The notes: generated from the letters alone by a model not told the origin. DNA of 7,139 nucleotides from Neisseria perflava (GCF_024170405.1 NZ_JALJYC010000046.1:1-7139), one strand, 5' to 3'. Positions 1 through 7,139 are shown, counted from the first letter of the stretch. Program-made: numbers and translations.

Positions 1-1
1 A

Positions 2-13
2 AGGCCGTCTGAA
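2..13 (+). repeat. DNA uptake sequence, 12-mer AGGCCGTCTGAA (AG-type extension)
   Basis: Exact GCCGTCTGAA core at 4-13, preceded by AG. Confidence 0.9.
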
Positions 14-24
14 ATCACTCCCGT

Positions 25-36
25 TTCAGACGGCCT
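25..36 (-). repeat. DNA uptake sequence, 12-mer AGGCCGTCTGAA on the minus strand
   Basis: TTCAGACGGCCT at 25-36 is the reverse complement of AGGCCGTCTGAA. Confidence 0.9.
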
Positions 37-70
37 TATATATTTAAAGCTCCTAAAAGGGGCATTTCAA

Positions 71-81
71 ACGGTATCTTG
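71..81 (+). repeat. Copy 1 of the exact 11-mer ACGGTATCTTG (candidate attL/recombination core)
   Basis: Identical 11-mers at 71-81, 6117-6127 and 7126-7136, all in direct orientation. Copy 1 lies 34 nt right of the flank terminator. Confidence 0.6.
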
Positions 82-115
82 AGCCGAGTAGCTCGTATCA
101 CACCGTAAGGCTGAT

Positions 116-144
116 AGCCCCTTCAATTTAAAGTTGTAGGGGCT
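116..144 (+). promoter_or_regulatory. Hairpin whose 3' arm contains the Shine-Dalgarno sequence of the 151-372 ORF
   Basis: AGCCCCT (116-122) pairs with AGGGGCT (138-144). An inner CAA/TTG (124-126 / 134-136) extends the stem. The AGGGG at 138-142 is the only SD-like element upstream of ATG 151. Confidence 0.3.
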
Positions 145-150
145 TTAATT

Positions 151-372
151 ATGGCAAACGAAATCACACGTATTTTATCAATTTCAACAGATTCAAAGCG
201 TATAGAAGTCAACAAACATTCTATTAAAGACGCATCTCAAGAAATCATCTTATACAAAAACAACCGCCTTTATTGCACGATTTGGACAGTTCCCCGTTTT
301 ACAGACGGCATTATTAAAGAATTTTTATCGACAGGACAAATTGCAAATTTCACAGGCTTAATGGTGGTGTAA
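151..372 (+). CDS. Hypothetical 73-aa protein immediately upstream of rep (possible phage regulator or accessory protein)
   Basis: The ORF has an AGGGG SD 8 nt upstream. Its stop at 370-372 lies 2 nt before the rep ATG, so the two are probably coupled. I recognise no motif. Confidence 0.5.
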   Translation: MANEITRILSISTDSKRIEVNKHSIKDASQEIILYKNNRLYCTIWTVPRFTDGIIKEFLSTGQIANFTGLMVV

Positions 373-374
373 AG

Positions 375-1757
375 ATGACAAACGCAAACAATACCCAAGT
401 AGAACGTAGTGAGGAACTGAAAACAGCGGCGGCGGATTTATGTCCGCCTTGCGGACAGGAAGCCGCCGCTGTTCAGAGTACCCCCACTAGTAACACGGGG
501 GGACTGGTAAGCGAAGCATACAGCACGTATGTGGTAGCGGGTGGCAAGTTGAAAGAAGTCCCGTTAAAACGTGGTGTATCAACAGCCGCTTTTGTCGATA
601 CCCTGACCTTTACCGTACATGAAGATGTTTTTGTCCGTCCTGACCAACTCGGCACAGAAGAAGAAATTACTGCAAACGTATCTGCCGAACTTGAAGAAAT
701 CATGGGGTACGGCTTATTTTGCCACCAAACAGGGCGTAACGGTTATGAAACCTCTTACAAGATGGGAAACGAAACCGTCAATTACGGATTTGTCGCTCTC
801 GGTGGAAACCGCCAACGCCAAACTATCTGCTTTTACTTTACCGGGGAAGGTTTGGTAGCTGCAAAAGAAGGCTGGGAAGTCCGTTTATACAACTATTTCA
901 AGACCTATGCACCGTTCGCAAAAATCACACGTTGCGATTTAGCTCACGATTTCTTAGACGGCGAATATACCCCCGAACAAGCAAAAAAAGATTGGGAAAA
1001 CGGTTTATATACAGCTCGTCAAAGCTGTCCAGTCGCCGAATGTGTCGGAAGTGACTGGCTCAAAGACGAAGGCCGCGGCAAAACCTTTTATATCGGAAGC
1101 CGTAAAAACAGTTCTCGCTTTGCCCGTATCTACGAAAAAGGCAAACAGTTAGGCGATAAAGACAGCCGTTGGGTACGTGTCGAACTTGAAATGAAAAACA
1201 GGGACATCCTTATCCCGCATGAAGTTTTAATTGAACCAGGTCGTTTTTTAACAGGTGCATACCCTGTGTTTGAAGTCTTATTCGAACAATACCAAGAAAC
1301 AGCCTTCAAAGCGGAAAAAGTAAAAAAGGTTCAGGACTTGGGGCATGAACATGTCCTTAAATATGCCTCCATGCAAGTATCCCCCGCCATCAAGATGTTG
1401 ATGGAAATGGGCTTTAGTGACAGCCAAATAGTAGAAACATTACTTAACCCAAAAGCAAAACTGCCCAAACGCCTTGTGCCGGAAGCATTCGATTGTTCGT
1501 ATCTAAATGTAGCGTTTATCCATGAACATAAACGACTGCCATATAGCGAAGCAGAGTTGTTGGAAAAATTCAGTAATGAACTGAATCCGCCAAAACGAAT
1601 GACTCATAGAACCTATGATCAGTATTTAGAAGCCAAGACCCGCTATGAAGGGGAAAGCATTATCGGTCTGAACCGAAACCGAAGCTATGAAGAATATATG
1701 TATGACCGCTATTTACGGAATGGCATTTTAAATCTAAACGAAAGGAAAACGACATGA
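375..1757 (+). CDS. Filamentous-phage replication initiation protein, Rep_trans / RstA / NicK-like rolling-circle initiator
   Basis: 460-aa ORF. It carries motifs I associate with the Rep_trans family: VDTLTFTV near the N-terminus, ITRCDLAHDF, FYIGSRKNSSRFARIYEKGKQ and WVRVELEMK. It occupies the first large-gene position of the inovirus replication module. Confidence 0.85.
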   Translation: MTNANNTQVERSEELKTAAADLCPPCGQEAAAVQSTPTSNTGGLVSEAYSTYVVAGGKLKEVPLKRGVSTAAFVDTLTFTVHEDVFVRPDQLGTEEEITANVSAELEEIMGYGLFCHQTGRNGYETSYKMGNETVNYGFVALGGNRQRQTICFYFTGEGLVAAKEGWEVRLYNYFKTYAPFAKITRCDLAHDFLDGEYTPEQAKKDWENGLYTARQSCPVAECVGSDWLKDEGRGKTFYIGSRKNSSRFARIYEKGKQLGDKDSRWVRVELEMKNRDILIPHEVLIEPGRFLTGAYPVFEVLFEQYQETAFKAEKVKKVQDLGHEHVLKYASMQVSPAIKMLMEMGFSDSQIVETLLNPKAKLPKRLVPEAFDCSYLNVAFIHEHKRLPYSEAELLEKFSNELNPPKRMTHRTYDQYLEAKTRYEGESIIGLNRNRSYEEYMYDRYLRNGILNLNERKTT

Positions 1758-2065
1758 AAGCAAGTTTGCGTAAAGTGAAATGGAATAAAGGCGTTGTACA
1801 AGATACAGGTCGGGAATACGACTACACCCGTATCTATATCGAAGCACCTATTTGGGACGGTTCATCAAATGAATTTGGCTTAGACACCATTTAACTTGAA
1901 TATGGTAACGAAGAAGCCCATAAAAATCTGTTCCATCTTAAAGGCAAATTGCCGGTAGATATTGAAGTTGAATATATCGACATGGTTAAAGGCAATGACG
2001 TTTTGAAAGTCGTGCAAAGCCTGAAAGTTCTGACACCGCAAGTTTCGGCAACACCGAAACCGTAA
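1754..2065 (+). pseudogene. Gene in the ssDNA-binding (gene V / RstB) position, 103 codons interrupted by an in-frame TAA at 1892-1894
   Basis: ATG 1754 overlaps the rep stop (ATGA), with AAGGA 7 nt upstream. The frame reads MKASLRKVKWNKGVVQDTGREYDYTRIYIEAPIWDGSSNEFGLDTI, then TAA, then stays open for 56 more codons (LEYGNEEAHKNLFHLKGKLPVDIEVEYIDMVKGNDVLKVVQSLKVLTPQVSATPKP) to TAA 2063-2065. The second part has no start codon or SD of its own. The function is assigned by synteny only. Confidence 0.55.
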
Positions 2066-2067
2066 CC

Positions 2068-2097
2068 GAATTCAGGCTACGGGGGTGGCTTGAATTC
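2068..2097 (+). promoter_or_regulatory. 10-bp hairpin between the ssb-position gene and the major coat gene (possible attenuator or RNA-processing site)
   Basis: GAATTCAGGC (2068-2077) pairs with GCTTGAATTC (2088-2097), including one G-T/G-U position, with a 10-nt loop. No U-run follows, so this is not a classical terminator. Confidence 0.35.
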
Positions 2098-2145
2098 CCC
2101 TACATTAAAGCCCCCAAATTCGTCTTATTTTTAAAGGAAAACATC

Positions 2146-2358
2146 ATGAAATTTATGAATACCTGCCGTAAATACGGCGCAAAAGCCGCAGTAGCAGCTC
2201 CTTTGGCTCTGGCAACGCAAGCTTATGCAGCATTGCCTGATGATGCAAAATCAGGCATTGAAGCCGCAAAAACCGATGGCTTGGAAGCAGGATGGTTGGT
2301 TGTCGGCGTATTTGCCTCTCTTTTCGTTATCGCCATCGTGAAACGTCTGTTGCGCTAA
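2146..2358 (+). CDS. Inovirus major coat protein (pVIII/Cep-like) precursor
   Basis: 70 aa, with a signal peptide ending AYA/A (predicted cleavage after residue 28). The 42-aa mature protein has an acidic N-terminus (ALPDDAKSGIEAAKTD), a hydrophobic core (WLVVGVFASLFVIAIV) and a basic DNA-binding tail (KRLLR). A strong SD (AAGGAAA) lies upstream. Confidence 0.9.
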   Translation: MKFMNTCRKYGAKAAVAAPLALATQAYAALPDDAKSGIEAAKTDGLEAGWLVVGVFASLFVIAIVKRLLR

Positions 2359-2367
2359 GGCCATAAC

Positions 2368-2643
2368 ATGTACTACCAAGTTGGAAACCAATGTTTAGAG
2401 CAAAGCCAAGCCGAAAACGTGTATTTCAGCTTGGTAGTACCTACCGTAACCGAAGACGGCAGGATATTAAAACCTGAATATAACGGAACAGGTTGGCAGC
2501 TTGACGGCCAAGTTATCAAAGCAGATTTACCGCAATGCAGCCCTGAAGAGAATTTAAAAGACGGTTTGGAAACAGGTTGGCTGATATTTGGCGTAATGGC
2601 AGCGTGTTACGTGATTATCGTTGTGAAAAGAATGCTCAGATGA
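2368..2643 (+). CDS. Coat-protein paralogue: novel 64-aa N-terminal domain fused to a major-coat-like TM and basic tail
   Basis: Residues 65-91 (DGLETGWLIFGVMAACYVIIVVKRMLR) match 17 of 27 positions of coat residues 44-70 (DGLEAGWLVVGVFASLFVIAIVKRLLR). The N-terminus has no recognisable signal peptide and carries two Cys (C9, C57). An AAGG SD lies 7 nt upstream. Confidence 0.75.
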   Translation: MYYQVGNQCLEQSQAENVYFSLVVPTVTEDGRILKPEYNGTGWQLDGQVIKADLPQCSPEENLKDGLETGWLIFGVMAACYVIIVVKRMLR

Positions 2644-2711
2644 TAGATTTTTATTTTTTACTGGGTTTGGCCGTGCCGGTCATCATAGGCATGATGATTT
2701 TTAAAGATTGA
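2640..2711 (+). CDS. 23-aa hydrophobic micro-ORF, candidate pVII/pIX-type minor coat protein
   Basis: ATG 2640 overlaps the preceding stop (ATGA). The peptide is MIDFYFLLGLAVPVIIGMMIFKD. Size, hydrophobicity and position after the coat genes resemble Ff pVII/pIX. It is too short for the ORF track and its SD is weak. Confidence 0.35.
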   Translation: MIDFYFLLGLAVPVIIGMMIFKD

Positions 2712-2767
2712 AAAACATGTTAAATTCCCATTTCGGATAACACAGTTGACGAAGTGAGGAATTTAAG

Positions 2768-3073
2768 ATGATTTGGGATATTTATAAGGGTTTCCGCCTG
2801 TATCTTTTAATGCGGGTTGTGTTGGATATCTTAGATATTTATCCGGCTCGAAAATATATATTTTGGCTTGTTTTATGTGTGGCTATTTTTGAAATAGTAA
2901 GAATTTTCATAAATAGAAACAATGATGAACCAGATGAAGATATTTTTATTGAAACACCTATAAATCCTAAAGGCTCGCCACCTGATTTTGATTCCGTTCA
3001 ATTCATGAAAGATTTGAACGAATTCAATTTGAAGCAAAAAGAAAAAATACGGGTAAAAAGGAAAAATGAATAA
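2768..3073 (+). CDS. Hypothetical 101-aa membrane protein in a low-GC block (possible moron or minor virion/assembly protein)
   Basis: A GAGGA SD lies 7 nt upstream. The N-terminal half is hydrophobic (LYLLMRVVLDILDI, YIFWLVLCVAIFEIVRIF) and the C-terminal half is charged. By hand count this region is about 27-35% GC per 60-nt line, against roughly 43-52% in sampled rep and zot lines. Confidence 0.6.
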   Translation: MIWDIYKGFRLYLLMRVVLDILDIYPARKYIFWLVLCVAIFEIVRIFINRNNDEPDEDIFIETPINPKGSPPDFDSVQFMKDLNEFNLKQKEKIRVKRKNE

Positions 3074-3086
3074 GTTATTTTTTTAA
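3066..3086 (+). other. Out-of-frame start of the pIII-like gene: ATG plus six codons ending in a T7 tract (3078-3084) and TAA
   Basis: The frame reads ATG AAT AAG TTA TTT TTT TAA, with AAGGA just upstream. One extra T, or a -1 slip on the T tract, joins it to the 3149 frame. That frame is already open from 3074 and encodes the hydrophobic core and AFA cleavage site of a signal peptide. Confidence 0.7.
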
Positions 3087-3148
3087 GCGGTCTTTTACTT
3101 TGTTCTTCATTTGCTTTTGCTGAACTAAATGTATCAAAAAGCGGTAAA

Positions 3149-4468
3149 GTGACTTATAAAAAACAGTCTGTTGCTCATTGGTATTCTAGTGGTTGGTCAA
3201 AAAGTGCAATTTCAGATAGTGCTTACAGAAACTTTCAAACTCAGGCAATGAAGGTCAGATATGAAAAGGCATTGTCGGCTTCATCTGTTCCAGTAGGTCT
3301 TGAAGCGGGTGTTTCAAGAGCAACCGTTCTAAAAAACTTATTCAGTAATTTTAAAAAATTCCGCTTTGGTGGCGGTTTTTGGACTTGGGCGGCTTTTACC
3401 GCTGTCGGTTTCGCTATTGATAAACTCCTAGAAGACGACGGCTACACCTATTCCGATTCAGGCAACAACTACACCAAAAATTATGCTTGTACAGTCAAAG
3501 CCAAATATCGTACGACGGTCTATGAAACCTTAGGCGTGTCCGATTCTGAATGCTCACGCGAATTAGGTTCAGCCATTGGTACTTATCTTTGTCAGAAGCA
3601 TTTTTCTTGGAGTGGATATACTTTTTCAGGATTTAATACAAGTAACGGAAATTGTGAATTTTCTAAAGGAAGTGATGTAAGGTCAAAAGGTAATATCACT
3701 TTTACCAAAAATCCCATAACAACCACACTTCAAGATGAAACCCTAGAAAGAATTATCGGCAAAGCCTTAGACAACGCAACAAGTACCGCTCTAGACAAAT
3801 ATATTCAAGCAACCGCCGATGAAAACGGCGATATTCCCGGTCTGGACATGACTATTTCCGTCCCTGCTGGAACAGTCGTTACCATCGGCCCATATACCGA
3901 CACAGACGGAAAAGTTAAACAAGCCACGATTACGTTCCAGCAAAGCGAAAGCGGAGAGACAACCGCCGATGTACAGGAAGAAGAACGTCCTGATTTAACG
4001 CCAAACAGCGAAGAAGCGCCGTCAGTAGAGCCGGAAGAAGAAACCGGCACCGGGTCGGGCAGTGAAACCGGAACAGGTACGGGAACGGGTAGCAGTACTG
4101 GAACGTCTACCGGAACAGATACCGGCACTTCAACCCGCACTGAAACCCAGCCGCAGGAACAAAGTTTTTTATGTGATTTATTTCCCGACATTCTTGCTTG
4201 CCAAAAAATGGGCGAACCATCAGAAGAAACATTTGAAGAGATAAGTATTCCGCAAGCAACTGATGATACAACATGGAAGCCTGATAGCTTTTTAGCTCCT
4301 AATGGCGTATGCCCGCAACCTAAGTCATTTAGCGTATGGGGTAAATCAGTTGAAATAAGCTACGAGCCTTTATGTGTATTGATGGAACAAGTCCGCTTTG
4401 CCGTTTTACTCGCATTCATTGTCATTTCTGCCTATATTTCATTTGGCGGATTAAGGAGTAAAGACTAA
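3149..4468 (+). CDS. pIII/OrfU-like minor coat (adsorption) protein; the true N-terminus is probably at 3066 via the T7 tract
   Basis: 439-aa ORF from GTG 3149, in the position before the pVI-like and Zot-like genes. It has an acidic and Gly/Thr/Ser-rich linker (EEETGTGSGSETGTGTGTGSSTGTSTGTDTGTSTRTET), a Cys-containing C-terminal domain and a terminal membrane anchor (FAVLLAFIVISAYISFGG). The in-frame upstream sequence encodes ...FLSGLLLCSSFAFA/ELNV. Confidence 0.8.
   Translation: MTYKKQSVAHWYSSGWSKSAISDSAYRNFQTQAMKVRYEKALSASSVPVGLEAGVSRATVLKNLFSNFKKFRFGGGFWTWAAFTAVGFAIDKLLEDDGYTYSDSGNNYTKNYACTVKAKYRTTVYETLGVSDSECSRELGSAIGTYLCQKHFSWSGYTFSGFNTSNGNCEFSKGSDVRSKGNITFTKNPITTTLQDETLERIIGKALDNATSTALDKYIQATADENGDIPGLDMTISVPAGTVVTIGPYTDTDGKVKQATITFQQSESGETTADVQEEERPDLTPNSEEAPSVEPEEETGTGSGSETGTGTGTGSSTGTSTGTDTGTSTRTETQPQEQSFLCDLFPDILACQKMGEPSEETFEEISIPQATDDTTWKPDSFLAPNGVCPQPKSFSVWGKSVEISYEPLCVLMEQVRFAVLLAFIVISAYISFGGLRSKD
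4043..4147 (+). repeat. Imperfect (ACN-GGN)n coding microsatellite-like tract giving a Thr-Gly/Ser-rich linker
   Basis: 35 codons read TGTGSGSETGTGTGTGSSTGTSTGTDTGTSTRTET. The repeated ACCGG/ACGGG/ACAGG units are visible in the DNA. Confidence 0.8.
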
Positions 4469-4752
4469 TGCCTGCCGCTTTAATACCACTTATCGGCATA
4501 TTGCTGAAACTTCTGGTTGTTAGAATTATTATTGCAACCGGTATGACCTTTGTAACTTATACCGGCTATATAGTTGCCTTAGATACCTTCAAAGACTACA
4601 TCAGCCAAGCTATGGCCTCAATGCCCGATGATATTCTTCAGTTATTGCTGATTGGTGGATTCGGTCAAGGACTTGGATATTTGTTTGGTGCATTTTCATT
4701 TCGAATCAGTATGAGCGCATTAAACAAATTGACATTTGTTTTACCGAAATAA
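4468..4752 (+). CDS. pVI/Ace-position small membrane protein (minor coat protein, DUF2523-like by recollection)
   Basis: 94 aa and very hydrophobic (LIPLIGILLKLLVVRIIIATGMTFVTY, LLLIGGFGQGLGYLFGAF). The start overlaps the pIII-like stop (TAATG), with an AAGGAG SD. It sits between the pIII-like and Zot-like genes, as in CTXphi and Ff. Confidence 0.7.
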   Translation: MPAALIPLIGILLKLLVVRIIIATGMTFVTYTGYIVALDTFKDYISQAMASMPDDILQLLLIGGFGQGLGYLFGAFSFRISMSALNKLTFVLPK

Positions 4753-4761
4753 GGGGAAAAC

Positions 4762-5499
4762 ATGATTTATCTGTTTACCGGAAATATGGGTACCGGCAAA
4801 ACCTCGCGTGTTGTATCCATGATTTTAAACAATGAAGACGGTTTGTTTAAAATGAAGCTCGAAGACGGTACGGAGGTTGATAGACCACTATATTTTTGTC
4901 ACATCGACGGCTTGGATAAACGTAAGTTTAACTCCCACGAGTTGACAGAAGAGCAAATTATGGAAGCCCCGTTGCGTGATGTAATCCCGCAAGGTGCAGT
5001 ATTAATTGTAGATGAAGCACACTATACCTATCCAGTCCGTTCTGCCGGTCGTCCTGTGCCTCCTTACATTCAAGAATTAACTGAACTCCGACATCACGGC
5101 CATACGGTTATTTTAATGACACAGCACCCAAGCCAATTAGACGTATTTGTCCGCAATTTGGTTTCAAAACATGTTCATCTTGAGCGTAAAGCAGTCGGAA
5201 TGAAGCAGTATTGGTGGTACAAGTGCGTAACCAGTTTAGACAATCCGGCCGGTGTCAGCGGCGTGGAATCTGCAAGTTGGAAACCGCCTAAAGAAGCATT
5301 TAAATATTACAAATCTTCCAGCCAACACCAAAAATTTAAGAAAAAAGTCCCCTTGGTAATATGGGCGTTAATTGCAATTTTGGGGTTTGTCGGTTGGAAG
5401 GCATACACCATGTACAATTTGTATAAAGAAGGTACGCAGACAACAGAACAGGTTGCAGATGTTCAAGCAACACCGGAAAGCAACATAGCAGAAAAATAA
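4762..5499 (+). CDS. zot: Zot/pI-like assembly ATPase, N-terminal ATPase domain plus TM segment (truncated relative to typical pI/Zot)
   Basis: Walker A is GNMGTGKTS (aa 7-15) and Walker B is VLIVDEAH (aa 80-87). A TM segment is present (VPLVIWALIAILGFVGWKAY), and an AAGGGG SD lies upstream. At 245 aa it is short for this family; the next frame is open from 5489. Confidence 0.85.
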   Translation: MIYLFTGNMGTGKTSRVVSMILNNEDGLFKMKLEDGTEVDRPLYFCHIDGLDKRKFNSHELTEEQIMEAPLRDVIPQGAVLIVDEAHYTYPVRSAGRPVPPYIQELTELRHHGHTVILMTQHPSQLDVFVRNLVSKHVHLERKAVGMKQYWWYKCVTSLDNPAGVSGVESASWKPPKEAFKYYKSSSQHQKFKKKVPLVIWALIAILGFVGWKAYTMYNLYKEGTQTTEQVADVQATPESNIAEK

Positions 5500-5563
5500 T
5501 CAAGGCATTAATGGGAATAGTTCCCCTAATGGCAATCTAAAACCATCCGATTTTGTACCGACA

Positions 5564-5938
5564 TTGGCCGAGCGTCCCGAATCAAAACCTATTTATGACA
5601 GTGTCCGTCAGGTCAAAACCTATGAGCGCATAGCAGCTTGTATTTCCGGCGGCAAAAGTGGATGTACTTGTTACAGCGATCAAGCAACGCCGTTGAAAGA
5701 AATCACTAAGGCTATGTGTGAGAAGTACGCCAAAGATGGCATACCATTCAACCCATATAAAGAGCCGGAAACGCAAAACATGGCCAAAGCGCAGGCACAG
5801 CACCAAACGGCAGATTCAGACGGCCAGCCGTCCCAAATCGTATCACTCGGCGGCAAGAGCCAACAGAATCTGATGTATGACAACCTAGTATCCCGTGACA
5901 GTTTCGGTACGCAAAACGGGGCAAAAGTTGGGGGATAG
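5564..5938 (+). CDS. Probable C-terminal (periplasmic) part of the Zot/pI-like protein, separated by a frameshift; alternatively an independent 124-aa protein
   Basis: This frame is open from 5489, overlapping the zot stop. It has no ATG or GTG and no SD before the TTG at 5564. It contains SGCTCYSDQATPL, which resembles a Cys-x-Cys-Tyr motif I recall in the C-terminal domains of Zot-like proteins. Joined to 4762-5499 it would give about 390 aa. Confidence 0.55.
   Translation: MAERPESKPIYDSVRQVKTYERIAACISGGKSGCTCYSDQATPLKEITKAMCEKYAKDGIPFNPYKEPETQNMAKAQAQHQTADSDGQPSQIVSLGGKSQQNLMYDNLVSRDSFGTQNGAKVGG
5815..5826 (-). repeat. DNA uptake sequence core (minus strand) inside phage coding sequence
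   Basis: TTCAGACGGC at 5815-5824 is an exact match. The 12-mer reads TGGCCGTCTGAA. Confidence 0.85.
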
Positions 5939-5946
5939 ACAATATC

Positions 5947-6000
5947 GCTGCTTTTTTCGGGTTGATAACGCTTTAGCGGAATCGACCCGAAAAAAGCAGC
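5947..6000 (+). promoter_or_regulatory. Perfect 16-bp stem hairpin 9 nt after the last morphogenesis ORF (candidate packaging signal, minus-strand origin, or part of a structured ncRNA)
   Basis: GCTGCTTTTTTCGGGT (5947-5962) is the exact reverse complement of ACCCGAAAAAAGCAGC (5985-6000). Three further pairs (5964-5966 with 5981-5983) extend the stem inward. No U-run follows on either strand. Confidence 0.6.
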
Positions 6001-6001
6001 A

Positions 6002-6023
6002 CGGGGGTTCAGGGAACACCCCG
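6002..6023 (+). promoter_or_regulatory. Short GC hairpin directly abutting the previous one
   Basis: CGGGG (6002-6006) pairs with CCCCG (6019-6023), with a 12-nt loop. Confidence 0.4.
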
Positions 6024-6030
6024 ACAGTTC

Positions 6031-6106
6031 AAACCATACGATACCGCCAAATAAACGGCCTGCCTGATAGCCTAATCAAGATTGGTACGTATGGTTTTCT
6101 TTATTT
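6031..6106 (+). promoter_or_regulatory. Long hairpin with a 38-nt loop and a T-rich tail (terminator-like end of the structured non-coding region)
   Basis: AAACCATACG-A-TACC (6031-6045, A6041 bulged) pairs with GGTACGTATGGTTT (6084-6097), giving 14 bp. The tail is TCTTTATTT (6098-6106). Confidence 0.5.
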
Positions 6107-6116
6107 GTAATTCATT

Positions 6117-6127
6117 ACGGTATCTTG
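6117..6127 (+). repeat. Copy 2 of ACGGTATCTTG, 31 nt upstream of the recombinase ATG
   Basis: Exact 11-mer. With the preceding T it shares 12 nt (TACGGTATCTTG) with copy 3. Confidence 0.6.
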
Positions 6128-6158
6128 GGCATTCAGCCCGTATAAATAAGGTTTGAGG

Positions 6159-7139
6159 ATGGTTTATTTGGGATCAGATGTATCAAAATCAACGATAGAT
6201 TGCTACATTCTGAGTGATGAAAAATCAGAACATTTCAAGATAGAAAACAATTCAGACGGCCTTAACAAACTACTTGAACAATTCAAACACCAAGACCTGT
6301 CAAAAATCCATGCCTGCTGTGAATCAACAGGCATTTATTATTTGAAAGTTGCCGAATTTCTGTACAGTTATCAGATTAAAATCAGCGTGGTAAACCCATT
6401 AGTCATCAAAAATTATGCACGTTTAAAACTGTCACGGATTAAAACTGACAAGCAGGATTCGAAGTTGATAGCGGAATACTGTCAAAATCAGAAGCCGAAG
6501 CTATGGCAACCTGACAGCCCTTTAAAACAGCAAATTCGCAGTTTGAACCGCAGAGCGGATCAACTAAACAGTTTGCTGGTAATGGAAAAGAACCGTCATC
6601 AGGTAGCGGATGATTGCGTTAAATTATCTATTGAGGAAACAATAGGCTTTTTAACCGAACAGATACAATCCGTTAAAAGACAAATTCAGGATTTGATAGA
6701 CAACAATACTGATTTGAAACAAAAACAGGGCATATTGGAAACAATACCGGGTATCGGCAAAACTACGGCTGCATGGTTATTGTCGGTATTGGTTGATTTG
6801 AACAAGTTTCCCAACGCCAAGCACTTTGTAAGCTATCTTGGTCTGACACCGGTTATTAAAGAATCCGGGACAAGTGTAAGAGGGTTATCTGTCATATCGA
6901 AAATGGGGGATAGGGCTGTAAGGAAAGCCCTATATATGCCTGCGCGTTCGGTTTGTACCCGCTCCAAGCTTTGGCGGCCTTGGTATGAGCAAAAACTTGA
7001 AGCGGGGAAACATCCAAAGGAAATTTATGTAGCCATGATGAAAAAAATATGTATTTATGCCTACACCTGCTTACAGAAAAATCAGCCTTTTGATGAAAAT
7101 TTACATAAGCGGCTTACAAGTGAATACGGTATCTTGATT
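6159..7139 (+). CDS. IS110-family (Piv/MooV-like, DEDD) transposase/recombinase, 3' end beyond the window
   Basis: My own translation gives 327 codons from ATG 6159 to the window edge with no stop. It begins MVYLGSDVSKSTIDCYIL. DEDD candidates are D7 (GSDVSK), E55 (CCESTGIYY), and D97 and D100 (IKTDKQDSKLIAEY). A Transposase_20-like C-terminal domain is present (PGIGKTTAAWLLSVLVDLNKFPNAKHFVSYLGLTPVIKESGTSVRG...SKMGDRAVRKALYM). An AAGG SD lies 7 nt upstream. Confidence 0.9.
   Translation, partial: MVYLGSDVSKSTIDCYILSDEKSEHFKIENNSDGLNKLLEQFKHQDLSKIHACCESTGIYYLKVAEFLYSYQIKISVVNPLVIKNYARLKLSRIKTDKQDSKLIAEYCQNQKPKLWQPDSPLKQQIRSLNRRADQLNSLLVMEKNRHQVADDCVKLSIEETIGFLTEQIQSVKRQIQDLIDNNTDLKQKQGILETIPGIGKTTAAWLLSVLVDLNKFPNAKHFVSYLGLTPVIKESGTSVRGLSVISKMGDRAVRKALYMPARSVCTRSKLWRPWYEQKLEAGKHPKEIYVAMMKKICIYAYTCLQKNQPFDENLHKRLTSEYGILI
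6251..6262 (-). repeat. DNA uptake sequence 12-mer AGGCCGTCTGAA (minus strand) inside the recombinase gene
   Basis: TTCAGACGGCCT at 6251-6262 is an exact match. Confidence 0.85.
7126..7136 (+). repeat. Copy 3 of ACGGTATCTTG, inside the last recombinase codons visible in the window (candidate attR / right-end core)
   Basis: Exact 11-mer within ...AGT GAA TAC GGT ATC TTG ATT. Confidence 0.6.

Follow-up and report, generated by a model that had tools for sequence, protein, structure and literature searches.

What is an exact 11-nucleotide word, ACGGTATCTTG, doing at three places in one small filamentous prophage? The word occurs in a 7,139-nt stretch of Neisseria perflava DNA (GCF_024170405.1, NZ_JALJYC010000046.1:1-7139; hereafter the window), which corresponds to about one entire N. 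perflava assembly contig, JALJYS010000059.1, the two being the same but for two bases and 33 extra nt at the 3' end. Pfam assigns it the gene content of an Nf-type filamentous phage (inovirus): Rep_trans, coat B, TspB, DUF2523 and Zot, with the gene for an IS110-family recombinase downstream of them. The sequence-only reading that first described the repeat saw in it the ends of one or more mobile units; it did not consider the RNA guidance of IS110 enzymes, which explains the repeats. We find that the three copies are the guide/donor triplet of a bridge-RNA system and not three attachment sites. The prophage very probably integrates through an IS621-like, bridge-RNA-guided IS110 recombinase, for which the 11-mer would supply both the donor word and its guides.

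An exact match search placed the word at 71-81, 6117-6127 and 7126-7136, always on the + strand and as first reported, with no further copy even at one mismatch. Copies 2 and 3 indeed have a longer stretch in common, TACGGTATCTTG; the end of copy 2 lies 31 nt before the recombinase ATG (6159), and copy 3 falls within the last codons of the recombinase open reading frame (ORF), which runs off the window. Shuffled versions of the window gave a mean of 0.10 matches, and 0 of 200 reached three copies. This test is post hoc, since the word was picked after being seen, and to that extent it leaves room for chance recurrence in an AT-rich 7-kb sequence. Stronger evidence comes from the layout itself: eight relatives (L009, L019, L006, L160, L020, L147, L148 and L167), four of them with a different word, likewise carry a cognate 8-9-mer in the left leader, again some 30-35 nt ahead of the recombinase ATG, and a third time at the right end. 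All complete relatives retrieved have it, including the circular L147 and L148 and the lemur-saliva inovirus L167. In a Kingella prophage with a recombinase only 52% identical to that of the window, ACAGTATC has exactly three copies: one lies in the left leader, the second 37 nt ahead of the start codon of the recombinase gene, and the third at the right end. Chance is therefore a negligible explanation, and the earlier view that the repeat is non-random and tied to the recombinase is borne out. As for how relatives were found, a scan of genome contigs with the recombinase gave only one, and a 15-mer scan of viral contigs returned 120 chance matches, none encoding the recombinase.

IS110 enzymes are guided by a two-loop bridge RNA. 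Each loop has a 5' side that repeats the left half-site and core in the same sense, and a 3' side antisense to the core together with the right half-site (Durrant et al. 2024, PMC11208160). Once strands have been exchanged, handshake dinucleotides pair with the DNA of the partner (Hiraizumi et al. 2024, PMC11208158; 2026, PMC13626964); these three papers concern IS621. We write TBL for the target-binding loop and DBL for the donor-binding loop, LT, RT, LD and RD for the left and right target and donor half-sites, and LTG, RTG, LDG and RDG for the corresponding guides. The window's recombinase is visibly a homolog of the IS621 enzyme, 34% identical over its full length, and phmmer against the IS621 structure (PDB 8wt6_A) gave E=1.4e-58 over residues 3-318. 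It combines a RuvC-like DEDD domain with a Tnp domain carrying the catalytic serine, and D11, E60, D102, D105 and S241 are invariant in the recombinase alignment. Homologous recombinases end ...HKRLDA*, their stop lying within gcTTGAat just before copy 3. In the window, a 1-nt deletion at 7119-7139 removes this stop, and the ORF reads through attR into host DNA.

The region of copy 2 aligns position for position with the DBL of the IS621-type Escherichia coli element L162, which consists of the LDG ACAGTATCA, a distal hairpin and, immediately ahead of the ATG, GCAAG+GT. Because of this alignment, and because the rules of the system require this guide to repeat the right end and core in the same sense, copy 2 is by analogy the left-donor guide, part of a canonical DBL that immediately precedes the recombinase. 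Copy 3 represents the left-donor half-site together with the core, i.e. the right end itself; the LDG equals LD plus core, and copies 2 and 3 have TACGGTATCT in common. Copy 1 repeats this guide in a further, paralogous donor-loop module (DBL') of the left-end leader. The functional overlap of the copies covers about 9-10 of the 11 bases (7 nt of LD, the core CT, then T); the last G is a coincidence specific to the window, and the relatives share 8-11 nt. The donor word occurs twice, as guide and right end, in IS621 and the distant inoviruses L005, L164 and L165, and three times in the window clade and L167.

The RDG is antisense to the core and the first left-end bases: across 11 elements, a TAAG/CAAG switch tracks a CT-TA/CT-TG left end. 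LDG and RDG are complementary to the element's own joined ends, as the guides of a bridge RNA are. It could be argued that the copies, upstream of the two operons and at the right end, are protein-binding DNA sites, of arm type or operators, that serve the recombinase or some phage regulator. That copies 1 and 2 both stand ahead of an operon start, with a following small hairpin and TAAGG motif, fits such sites; yet the copy 2 region is homologous to the IS621 DBL, where RNA function was shown experimentally and structurally, the distal hairpins keep their pairing via compensatory changes, and covariation of RDG with RD is not expected of a protein operator. We consider protein sites very improbable and read the copies as guides and donor.

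To place the ends of the mobile unit, we compared two circular sister genomes and prophages at seven chromosomal sites; the window's own junctions were placed by homology to these relatives and by guide matching. The circular genomes OR148979 and OR148983, complete inovirus genomes from saliva, are of the same phage type as the integrated Kingella elements, and such saliva-derived circular genomes are relatives of the window phage. Their joined ends read ...TTGAC(A/G)-N6-ACAGTAT-CT and then TGTATATTCAAAGCTCCACAAGGGGCAT / TGTATATTCAAAGCTCC...GGGGCAT...ACAGTATCTTAGGC. In the integrated L006 and L160, the left end reads hairpin-GCTGC-CT-TGTATATT and the right end ACAGTAT-CT-TTTGT. Common to attP (L147, L148), attL and attR (L006, L160) are only CT and a fortuitous T, and CT is thus the crossover core. 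The sequence-only reading had expected a short core repeated at both ends; such a core exists, but it is CT and not the 11-mer. CT stands at both ends with no terminal inverted repeats reported, as in IS110 elements.

Across the prophage loci compared, which include narI/fkpA, murJ/ABC permease, pilY1/topA, recA-like and a sigma-factor locus, sequence is conserved left of the attR CT and differs right of it. Conservation extends to the DNA on either side of copy 1 and to that on the left of copy 3; divergence is confined to the DNA left of a hairpin that lies about 35 nt upstream of copy 1 and to that directly right of copy 3. This hairpin is formed by an inverted pair of DNA uptake sequences (DUS), a type of pair documented to act as a terminator (PMC3630211), and a terminator scan gave a terminator-like match at 1-37 that covers it. 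Its loop and the DNA left of it differ among the window, L009 and L019, while its arms keep the host DUS, and it is missing from the joined ends of the circular sister phages. These comparisons place the hairpin in host DNA and copy 1 inside the phage, 35 nt from the probable junction at 35-36, not at the left prophage junction where it had been put. By homology, the mobile unit would run from CT 35-36 to CT 7133-7134, with bases 1-34 and 7135-7139 chromosomal. The predicted circle junction of the window is ...GTGAATACGGTAT-CT-TATATATTTAAAG... and its predicted empty site ...TTTCAGACGGC-CT-TGATT.... We found no dRS3 repeat (ATTCCC-N8-GGGAAT) at the window's junctions, the flanks being the DUS hairpin and TGATT; an attachment site other than dRS3, as first suggested, is upheld.

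Could the 11-mer nonetheless be an attachment core, with attL at 71-81, attR at 7126-7136 and an internal third site that lets a 1-kb cassette or a 6-kb phage module excise separately? The three exact direct copies speak for it, and copy 3 does coincide with the right junction, a part of the original proposal that stands. Half-match recombination by IS110 enzymes, described in recent preprints, also makes rare recombination between copies possible. Against this, the 35 nt left of copy 1 are phage DNA, as is the other flank of that copy, conserved across loci and contiguous with the right end in the circles, so that copy 1 is not attL; the junction core is only CT; and copies in relatives share as few as 8 nt. 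The TBL, moreover, falls outside the interval between copies 2 and 3, which speaks against a separate 1-kb insertion sequence bounded by them. Attachment sites of this kind are highly unlikely.

Two other placements were considered and rejected. One read the contig as circularly permuted, so that 7139 joins 1 (giving ...KAV*) and the DUS hairpin terminates the recombinase gene; the circular sisters join the right end to TGTATATT..., not to the hairpin. The other put the left junction just left of the hairpin and was ruled out by the same circular joins and by the LTG match. The window and an independent Logan contig (L003) end at the same base, where the 9-mer specified by the RTG finishes, and the conjugative-element contig L155 likewise stops with its own RTG-matched 9-mer. 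Such stops fit de Bruijn assembly of an element present in at least two contexts with nothing but the guide-specified bases in common, which is suggestive only, since two other contigs run 4 nt longer. In L020, the left and right chromosomal flanks (3640-3760 and 11160-11250) have a similar terminator hairpin, AAAAAATCCCCACT..., as well as some 40 nt of related sequence, which suggests insertion within or beside a repeated element.

The chromosomal side of the junctions is matched by the other loop. A predicted structured RNA gene, TBL first and DBL second, lies upstream of the recombinase. Across 12 relatives, RNAalifold gave a TBL stem of 13 bp, 11 of which show compensatory double changes and none of which is broken. 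The RTG with its handshake, AATCAAGAT, is the exact reverse complement of 7131-7139, that is, the last two phage bases, the CT core and five chromosomal bases. For nine independent elements with five variable positions each, the RTG matches its own right flank at 41 of 45 positions (44 of 45 allowing G:T/U:G wobble). Non-cognate pairs of RTG and flank match at a mean of 1.5 of 5 positions, and 0 of 200,000 permutations did as well as the cognate pairing.

On the left side, the LTG ACGGCCT is the end of the reverse-complemented 12-mer DUS plus CT, and the 3' arm of the DUS hairpin is the source of the half-site LT (ACGGC, 30-34). The LTG follows the hairpin of each phage: it is GCTGCCTTG in Kingella-type phages, including L006, and TCCGAC in L020, in both cases the element's own hairpin arm. 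LTG and RTG match the insertion-site flanks including the core, as in known bridge RNAs, and this complementarity and covariation of guide and flank is observed directly. The 12-mer sequences of the DUS dialects are reportedly those of a figure in a paper on DUS-pair terminators. The phage itself holds reverse-complement DUS copies at 5814-5825 and 6250-6264; the one inside the recombinase gene reads TTCAGACGGCCTTA and is a left-target half-match (ACGGC-CT) to the phage's own LTG. A pairing of the loop bases GATACCG with the 11-mer was also tried and ruled out, since these bases belong to a compensatory stem extension, TACC/GGTA.

Taken together, these features suggest the following scheme. 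A bridge RNA with two loops would be encoded just upstream of the recombinase. In the TBL, the 5' guide ACGGCCT would read the reverse-complemented tail of the host DUS plus core, and the 3' guide AATCAAG, with handshake AT, the core plus TGATT; in the DBL, the 5' guide, copy 2, would be a same-sense copy of the phage right end plus core (TACGGTAT-CT), the right end being copy 3. The system would thereby aim the phage at the host DUS hairpin. Enzyme and putative RNA agree with an IS621-like bridge system in every respect that can be judged from sequence, and we infer that bridge RNAs are produced and used.

The leader module that contains copy 1 has the three-part order of a donor loop within a closing stem, and its fold has z = -4.07. 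The same order is found in L009, L019, L006, L160, L147, L148, L020 and L167. Between lineages, the module covaries with the ends, ACGG versus ACAG with LD, and TAAGGC versus CAAGGC with RD TA versus TG, and its distal stem is GAGC/GCTC, GGC/GCC or CGGC/GCCG depending on the lineage. A homologous leader hairpin stands in L004, L005 and L164 without the DBL' module. DBL' might be a non-functional relic of a fusion between an inovirus and an IS110 element, with only the canonical TBL and DBL in use: IS621 and the IS110-carrying inoviruses L005, L164 and L165 have one DBL and no DBL' module, and the position of copies 1 and 2 on either side of the phage genes resembles the footprint of a duplication. 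However, DBL' is kept in lineages whose recombinases are only 39-52% identical; LDG' tracks LD (ACGG versus ACAG) and RDG' tracks RD (TAAG versus CAAG); the DBL' handshake GC matches the LT dinucleotide; and the distal stem changes by compensation while the sequence between the elements drifts. In the ACAG lineages, the CT core is matched more closely by LDG' (CT) than by the canonical LDG (CA). Covariation across recombinases this divergent argues for selection on the putative loop. We hold a relic to be rather unlikely, and a functional DBL' to have about even chances. Fusion remains a reasonable account of origin, with copies 1 and 2 as paralogous donor-loop modules bracketing the phage genes, so that the suggestion that the phage had recombined into one end of a resident IS110-type element may hold for its evolution; it does not hold for the present-day junctions.

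Two further elements give side observations. In L149, an IS5-type transposase gene (3066-4079) immediately precedes Rep, at the place expected for the phage left end; L158 (1-4400) is an inovirus without a Rep gene that adjoins Mu-like terminase/portal genes; and in both, LDG (ACGG) and LD (ACAG) differ by a G:T-compatible change.

DBL' lies downstream of one half of a split promoter. In OR148979 and OR148983, promoter-like sequence is directly seen across the circle junction: right-end TTGACA or TTGACG, 17 nt, left-end TATATT. The predicted attP of the window gives TTACAA, 17 nt, TATATT, and the 1-nt deletion that removes the recombinase stop also changes this -35 box from TTGACG to TTACAA, weakening it. 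Such a promoter across the joined right and left ends, seen here at the level of sequence, has a precedent in the junction promoter rebuilt in the IS621 circle (PMC11208160). In these phages it faces DBL' and the ORF1/Rep operon, not the TBL. A generic promoter scan of the integrated window gave no specific hit at the ends, in keeping with a promoter that is split in the integrated state, where the -35 is replaced by the host terminator hairpin. The DBL' leader would thus be transcribed strongly only in the circle, with the right-end -35 joined to the left-end -10, and we infer that integration switches off DBL' and the Rep operon by splitting the promoter.

These elements can be combined, tentatively and at somewhat less than even odds, into an RNA-guided lysogeny switch built on a two-donor-loop bridge system. 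A stand-alone DBL' would be the first product of the rebuilt promoter, followed by the replication operon; integration would split the promoter behind a host terminator and silence both; the LTG, matched to the DUS dialect, would make the integration range follow that dialect; and the cassette would also serve a conjugative element. On this same tentative footing, DBL' would have a perfect match to the CT core and a GC handshake tuned to the DUS tail.

Several observations weigh against the bridge-RNA reading or parts of it. RNAalifold across the broad family found only the distal hairpin of the canonical DBL, with no conserved closing stem, and its consensus for DBL' was poor and unconvincing. 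The LTG match is short (5 nt plus core), L008 matches its RTG at only 6 of 9 positions, and the attL of L020 is 1 base shorter than its donor guides predict. The predicted empty sites of the window and of L009 had 0 matches each in metagenome contigs, the sole contig found on the FkpA route to the empty site is occupied, and we found no circular form of the window's own lineage. The -35 of the window, TTACAA, is weak, and with its recombinase stop lost and a nonsense codon at 1892, the window copy may be decaying.

Set beside IS621 itself, the window phage agrees in the CT core, in the order of TBL and DBL directly upstream of the DEDD/Ser recombinase, in guide polarity, in the handshakes AU (TBL) and GU (DBL) as published, and in a -35/-10 pair rebuilt across the circle junction. 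In L162, attL reads ...caggc-CT-TGTAT, the TBL RTG GCGTAG+AT and attR ...ACAGTAT-CT-ACGC, and the donor ACAGTAT-CT-TGTAT is near-identical in L162 and the Kingella-type phage. Unlike IS621, the window phage has about 6 kb of a complete inovirus genome separating the TBL from the left terminus and its -10 box, and the junction promoter therefore faces the Rep operon rather than the bridge RNA; it has the extra DBL' in its leader; and its left target half is the host DUS hairpin instead of a REP-like sequence.

Prophages of the Nf1/meningococcal disease-associated (MDA) type integrate at dRS3 through an IS110/Piv-type transposase, according to Kawai et al. 2005 and Meyer et al. 2016 as cited in PMC7058167, and the dRS3 repeats they use contain CT (PMC7058167). 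As far as that summary goes, they share with the window phage the order Rep ... TspB-Zot-IS110 recombinase at the right end, a CT crossover and variable sites, and differ in the target, which in the window is rc-DUS(ACGGC)-CT-TGATT (rc, reverse complement) with no intact dRS3 flanking. In the published Nf-phage work that we found, no RNA guide is described. Cargo-expanded IS110 loci carry antimicrobial-resistance, metal-resistance or plasmid-like cargo, in a preprint that mentions neither Neisseria nor filamentous phages (bioRxiv 10.64898/2026.08.14.744561). There too a recombinase and bridge RNA move many kb, and guide-like half-matches lie inside the element, whereas the cargo here is a self-replicating virus also found circular, with a duplicated donor loop. 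For ICENmu, a Neisseria integrative and conjugative element with a terminal integrase gene, DUS motifs were proposed as integration sites and IS110 is not mentioned (PMC7371117). Both exploit the abundant DUS or DUS-pair terminators as landing sites; in the window phage, by contrast, the DUS would be read by an RNA guide that changes with the DUS dialect. What differs here from these systems is thus a whole inovirus as cargo between left terminus and TBL, a second donor loop in the leader, and an LTG that follows the DUS dialect.

If correct, the bridge-RNA reading offers a concrete mechanism for the choice of integration sites by filamentous prophages of the Neisseriaceae, relatives of the disease-associated MDA phage. 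The site would be written in two short RNA guides readable from the genome, making targets predictable for each phage, and phage integration would be linked to the DUS dialects that structure Neisseriaceae gene flow. It would also provide a natural bridge recombinase that carries a complete self-replicating 7-kb virus, with a relative at the end of a conjugative element. Features of interest for engineering would be the second donor loop, the complementarity of a handshake dinucleotide to the target, and the anchoring of the left target half on a sequence that each genome contains thousands of times.

This conjugative element (L153, L154 and L155) carries TraI_2, TraG-D_C, TraK/E/L and TrbI genes and, at its right end, a recombinase (10001-11020) 50% identical to that of the window with its own TBL and DBL; the right junction lies about 250 nt downstream of the recombinase. 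Its chromosomal right flank was found in two different versions, each beginning with the CT-GAAAA that its RTG predicts, and its predicted target, (G)CTGC-CT-GAAAA, resembles a forward DUS. The features of the window itself are collected in Table 1.

Table 1 Features of the 7,139-nt N. perflava window, with the basis of each assignment or a remark
Feature	Position	Strand	Basis or remark
Chromosomal left flank	1-34	+	12-mer AG-DUS inverted pair (2-13, 25-36), terminator-like hairpin
attL crossover core CT	35-36	+	Homology; at 3' foot of DUS hairpin
-10 box TATATT of split junction promoter	39-44	+	Phage left end
DBL' module in ORF1/Rep leader (putative)	57-123	+	Closing stem AAGGGGC 57-63 / GCCCCTT 117-123
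LDG' (copy 1, 71-81), guide ACGGTATCT	71-79, plus TG 80-81	+	Same sense as LD + core
DBL' distal hairpin	81-94	+	
RDG' + handshake, TAAG+GC	106-111	+	
Inovirus gene module	151-5938	+	Pfam; gene calls on near-identical contig
ORF1	In module 151-5938, before Rep_trans	+	Gene calls
Rep_trans	375-1757	+	Pfam/gene calls
103-aa ORF, directly downstream of Rep	1754-2065	+	Gene calls; stop at 1892
Coat B	2146-2358	+	Pfam/gene calls
TspB	3149-4468	+	Pfam/gene calls
DUF2523	4468-4752	+	Pfam/gene calls
Zot	4762-5499	+	Pfam/gene calls
ORF	5564-5938	+	Gene calls
TBL of predicted bridge RNA	6031-6097	+	RNAalifold; stem 6031-6040, bulged A6041, 6042-6045, pairing with 6084-6097
LTG ACGGCCT	6055-6061	+	Equals LT + core (30-36)
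RTG + handshake, AATCAAG+AT	6074-6082	+	Exact reverse complement of right junction
Canonical DBL (predicted)	6116-6152	+	Homology to IS621 DBL in L162
LDG TACGGTATCT of canonical DBL	6116-6125	+	Overlaps copy 2 (6117-6127)
Canonical DBL distal hairpin	6127-6139	+	Covaries
RDG ATAAG	6146-6150	+	
Handshake GT	6151-6152	+	
IS110-family (IS621-like) DEDD/Ser recombinase gene	6159-7139, runs off end	+	Pfam PF01548, PF02371
-35-like hexamer TTACAA of split junction promoter	7114-7119	+	Right end; TTGACG/TTGACA in relatives
Left-donor half-site TACGGTAT (7125-7132) + attR core CT (7133-7134)	7125-7134	+	Inside copy 3
Chromosomal right target half-site RT, TGATT	7135-7139	+	RTG match; contig stops exactly here

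The gene set, Rep_trans, coat B, TspB, DUF2523/G6P and Zot with a terminal IS110 transposase, is that of Nf-type prophages. Two single-base differences touch coding sequence: T1892 of the window, where GenBank has C, makes TAA of a Gln codon and so cuts the 103-aa ORF short, and C4320, compared with JALJYS010000059.1, changes Leu to Pro in TspB. Downstream of the ORF at 5564-5938, a hairpin with 26-bp arms (5947-6000) is followed by a small G-rich hairpin. An Rfam search of the window matched no family, its sole hit being a spurious mir-363 on this hairpin. The core GTTGAT...GCGGAATC(A/G)AC of the region is kept in L007 and in the distant inoviruses L004 and L005, and the region may be a packaging signal or an origin. 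Within TspB, degenerate 12/18-nt tandem repeats at 4037-4146 encode a Gly/Thr/Ser-rich tract, and Logan contigs of the same phage break within this gene.

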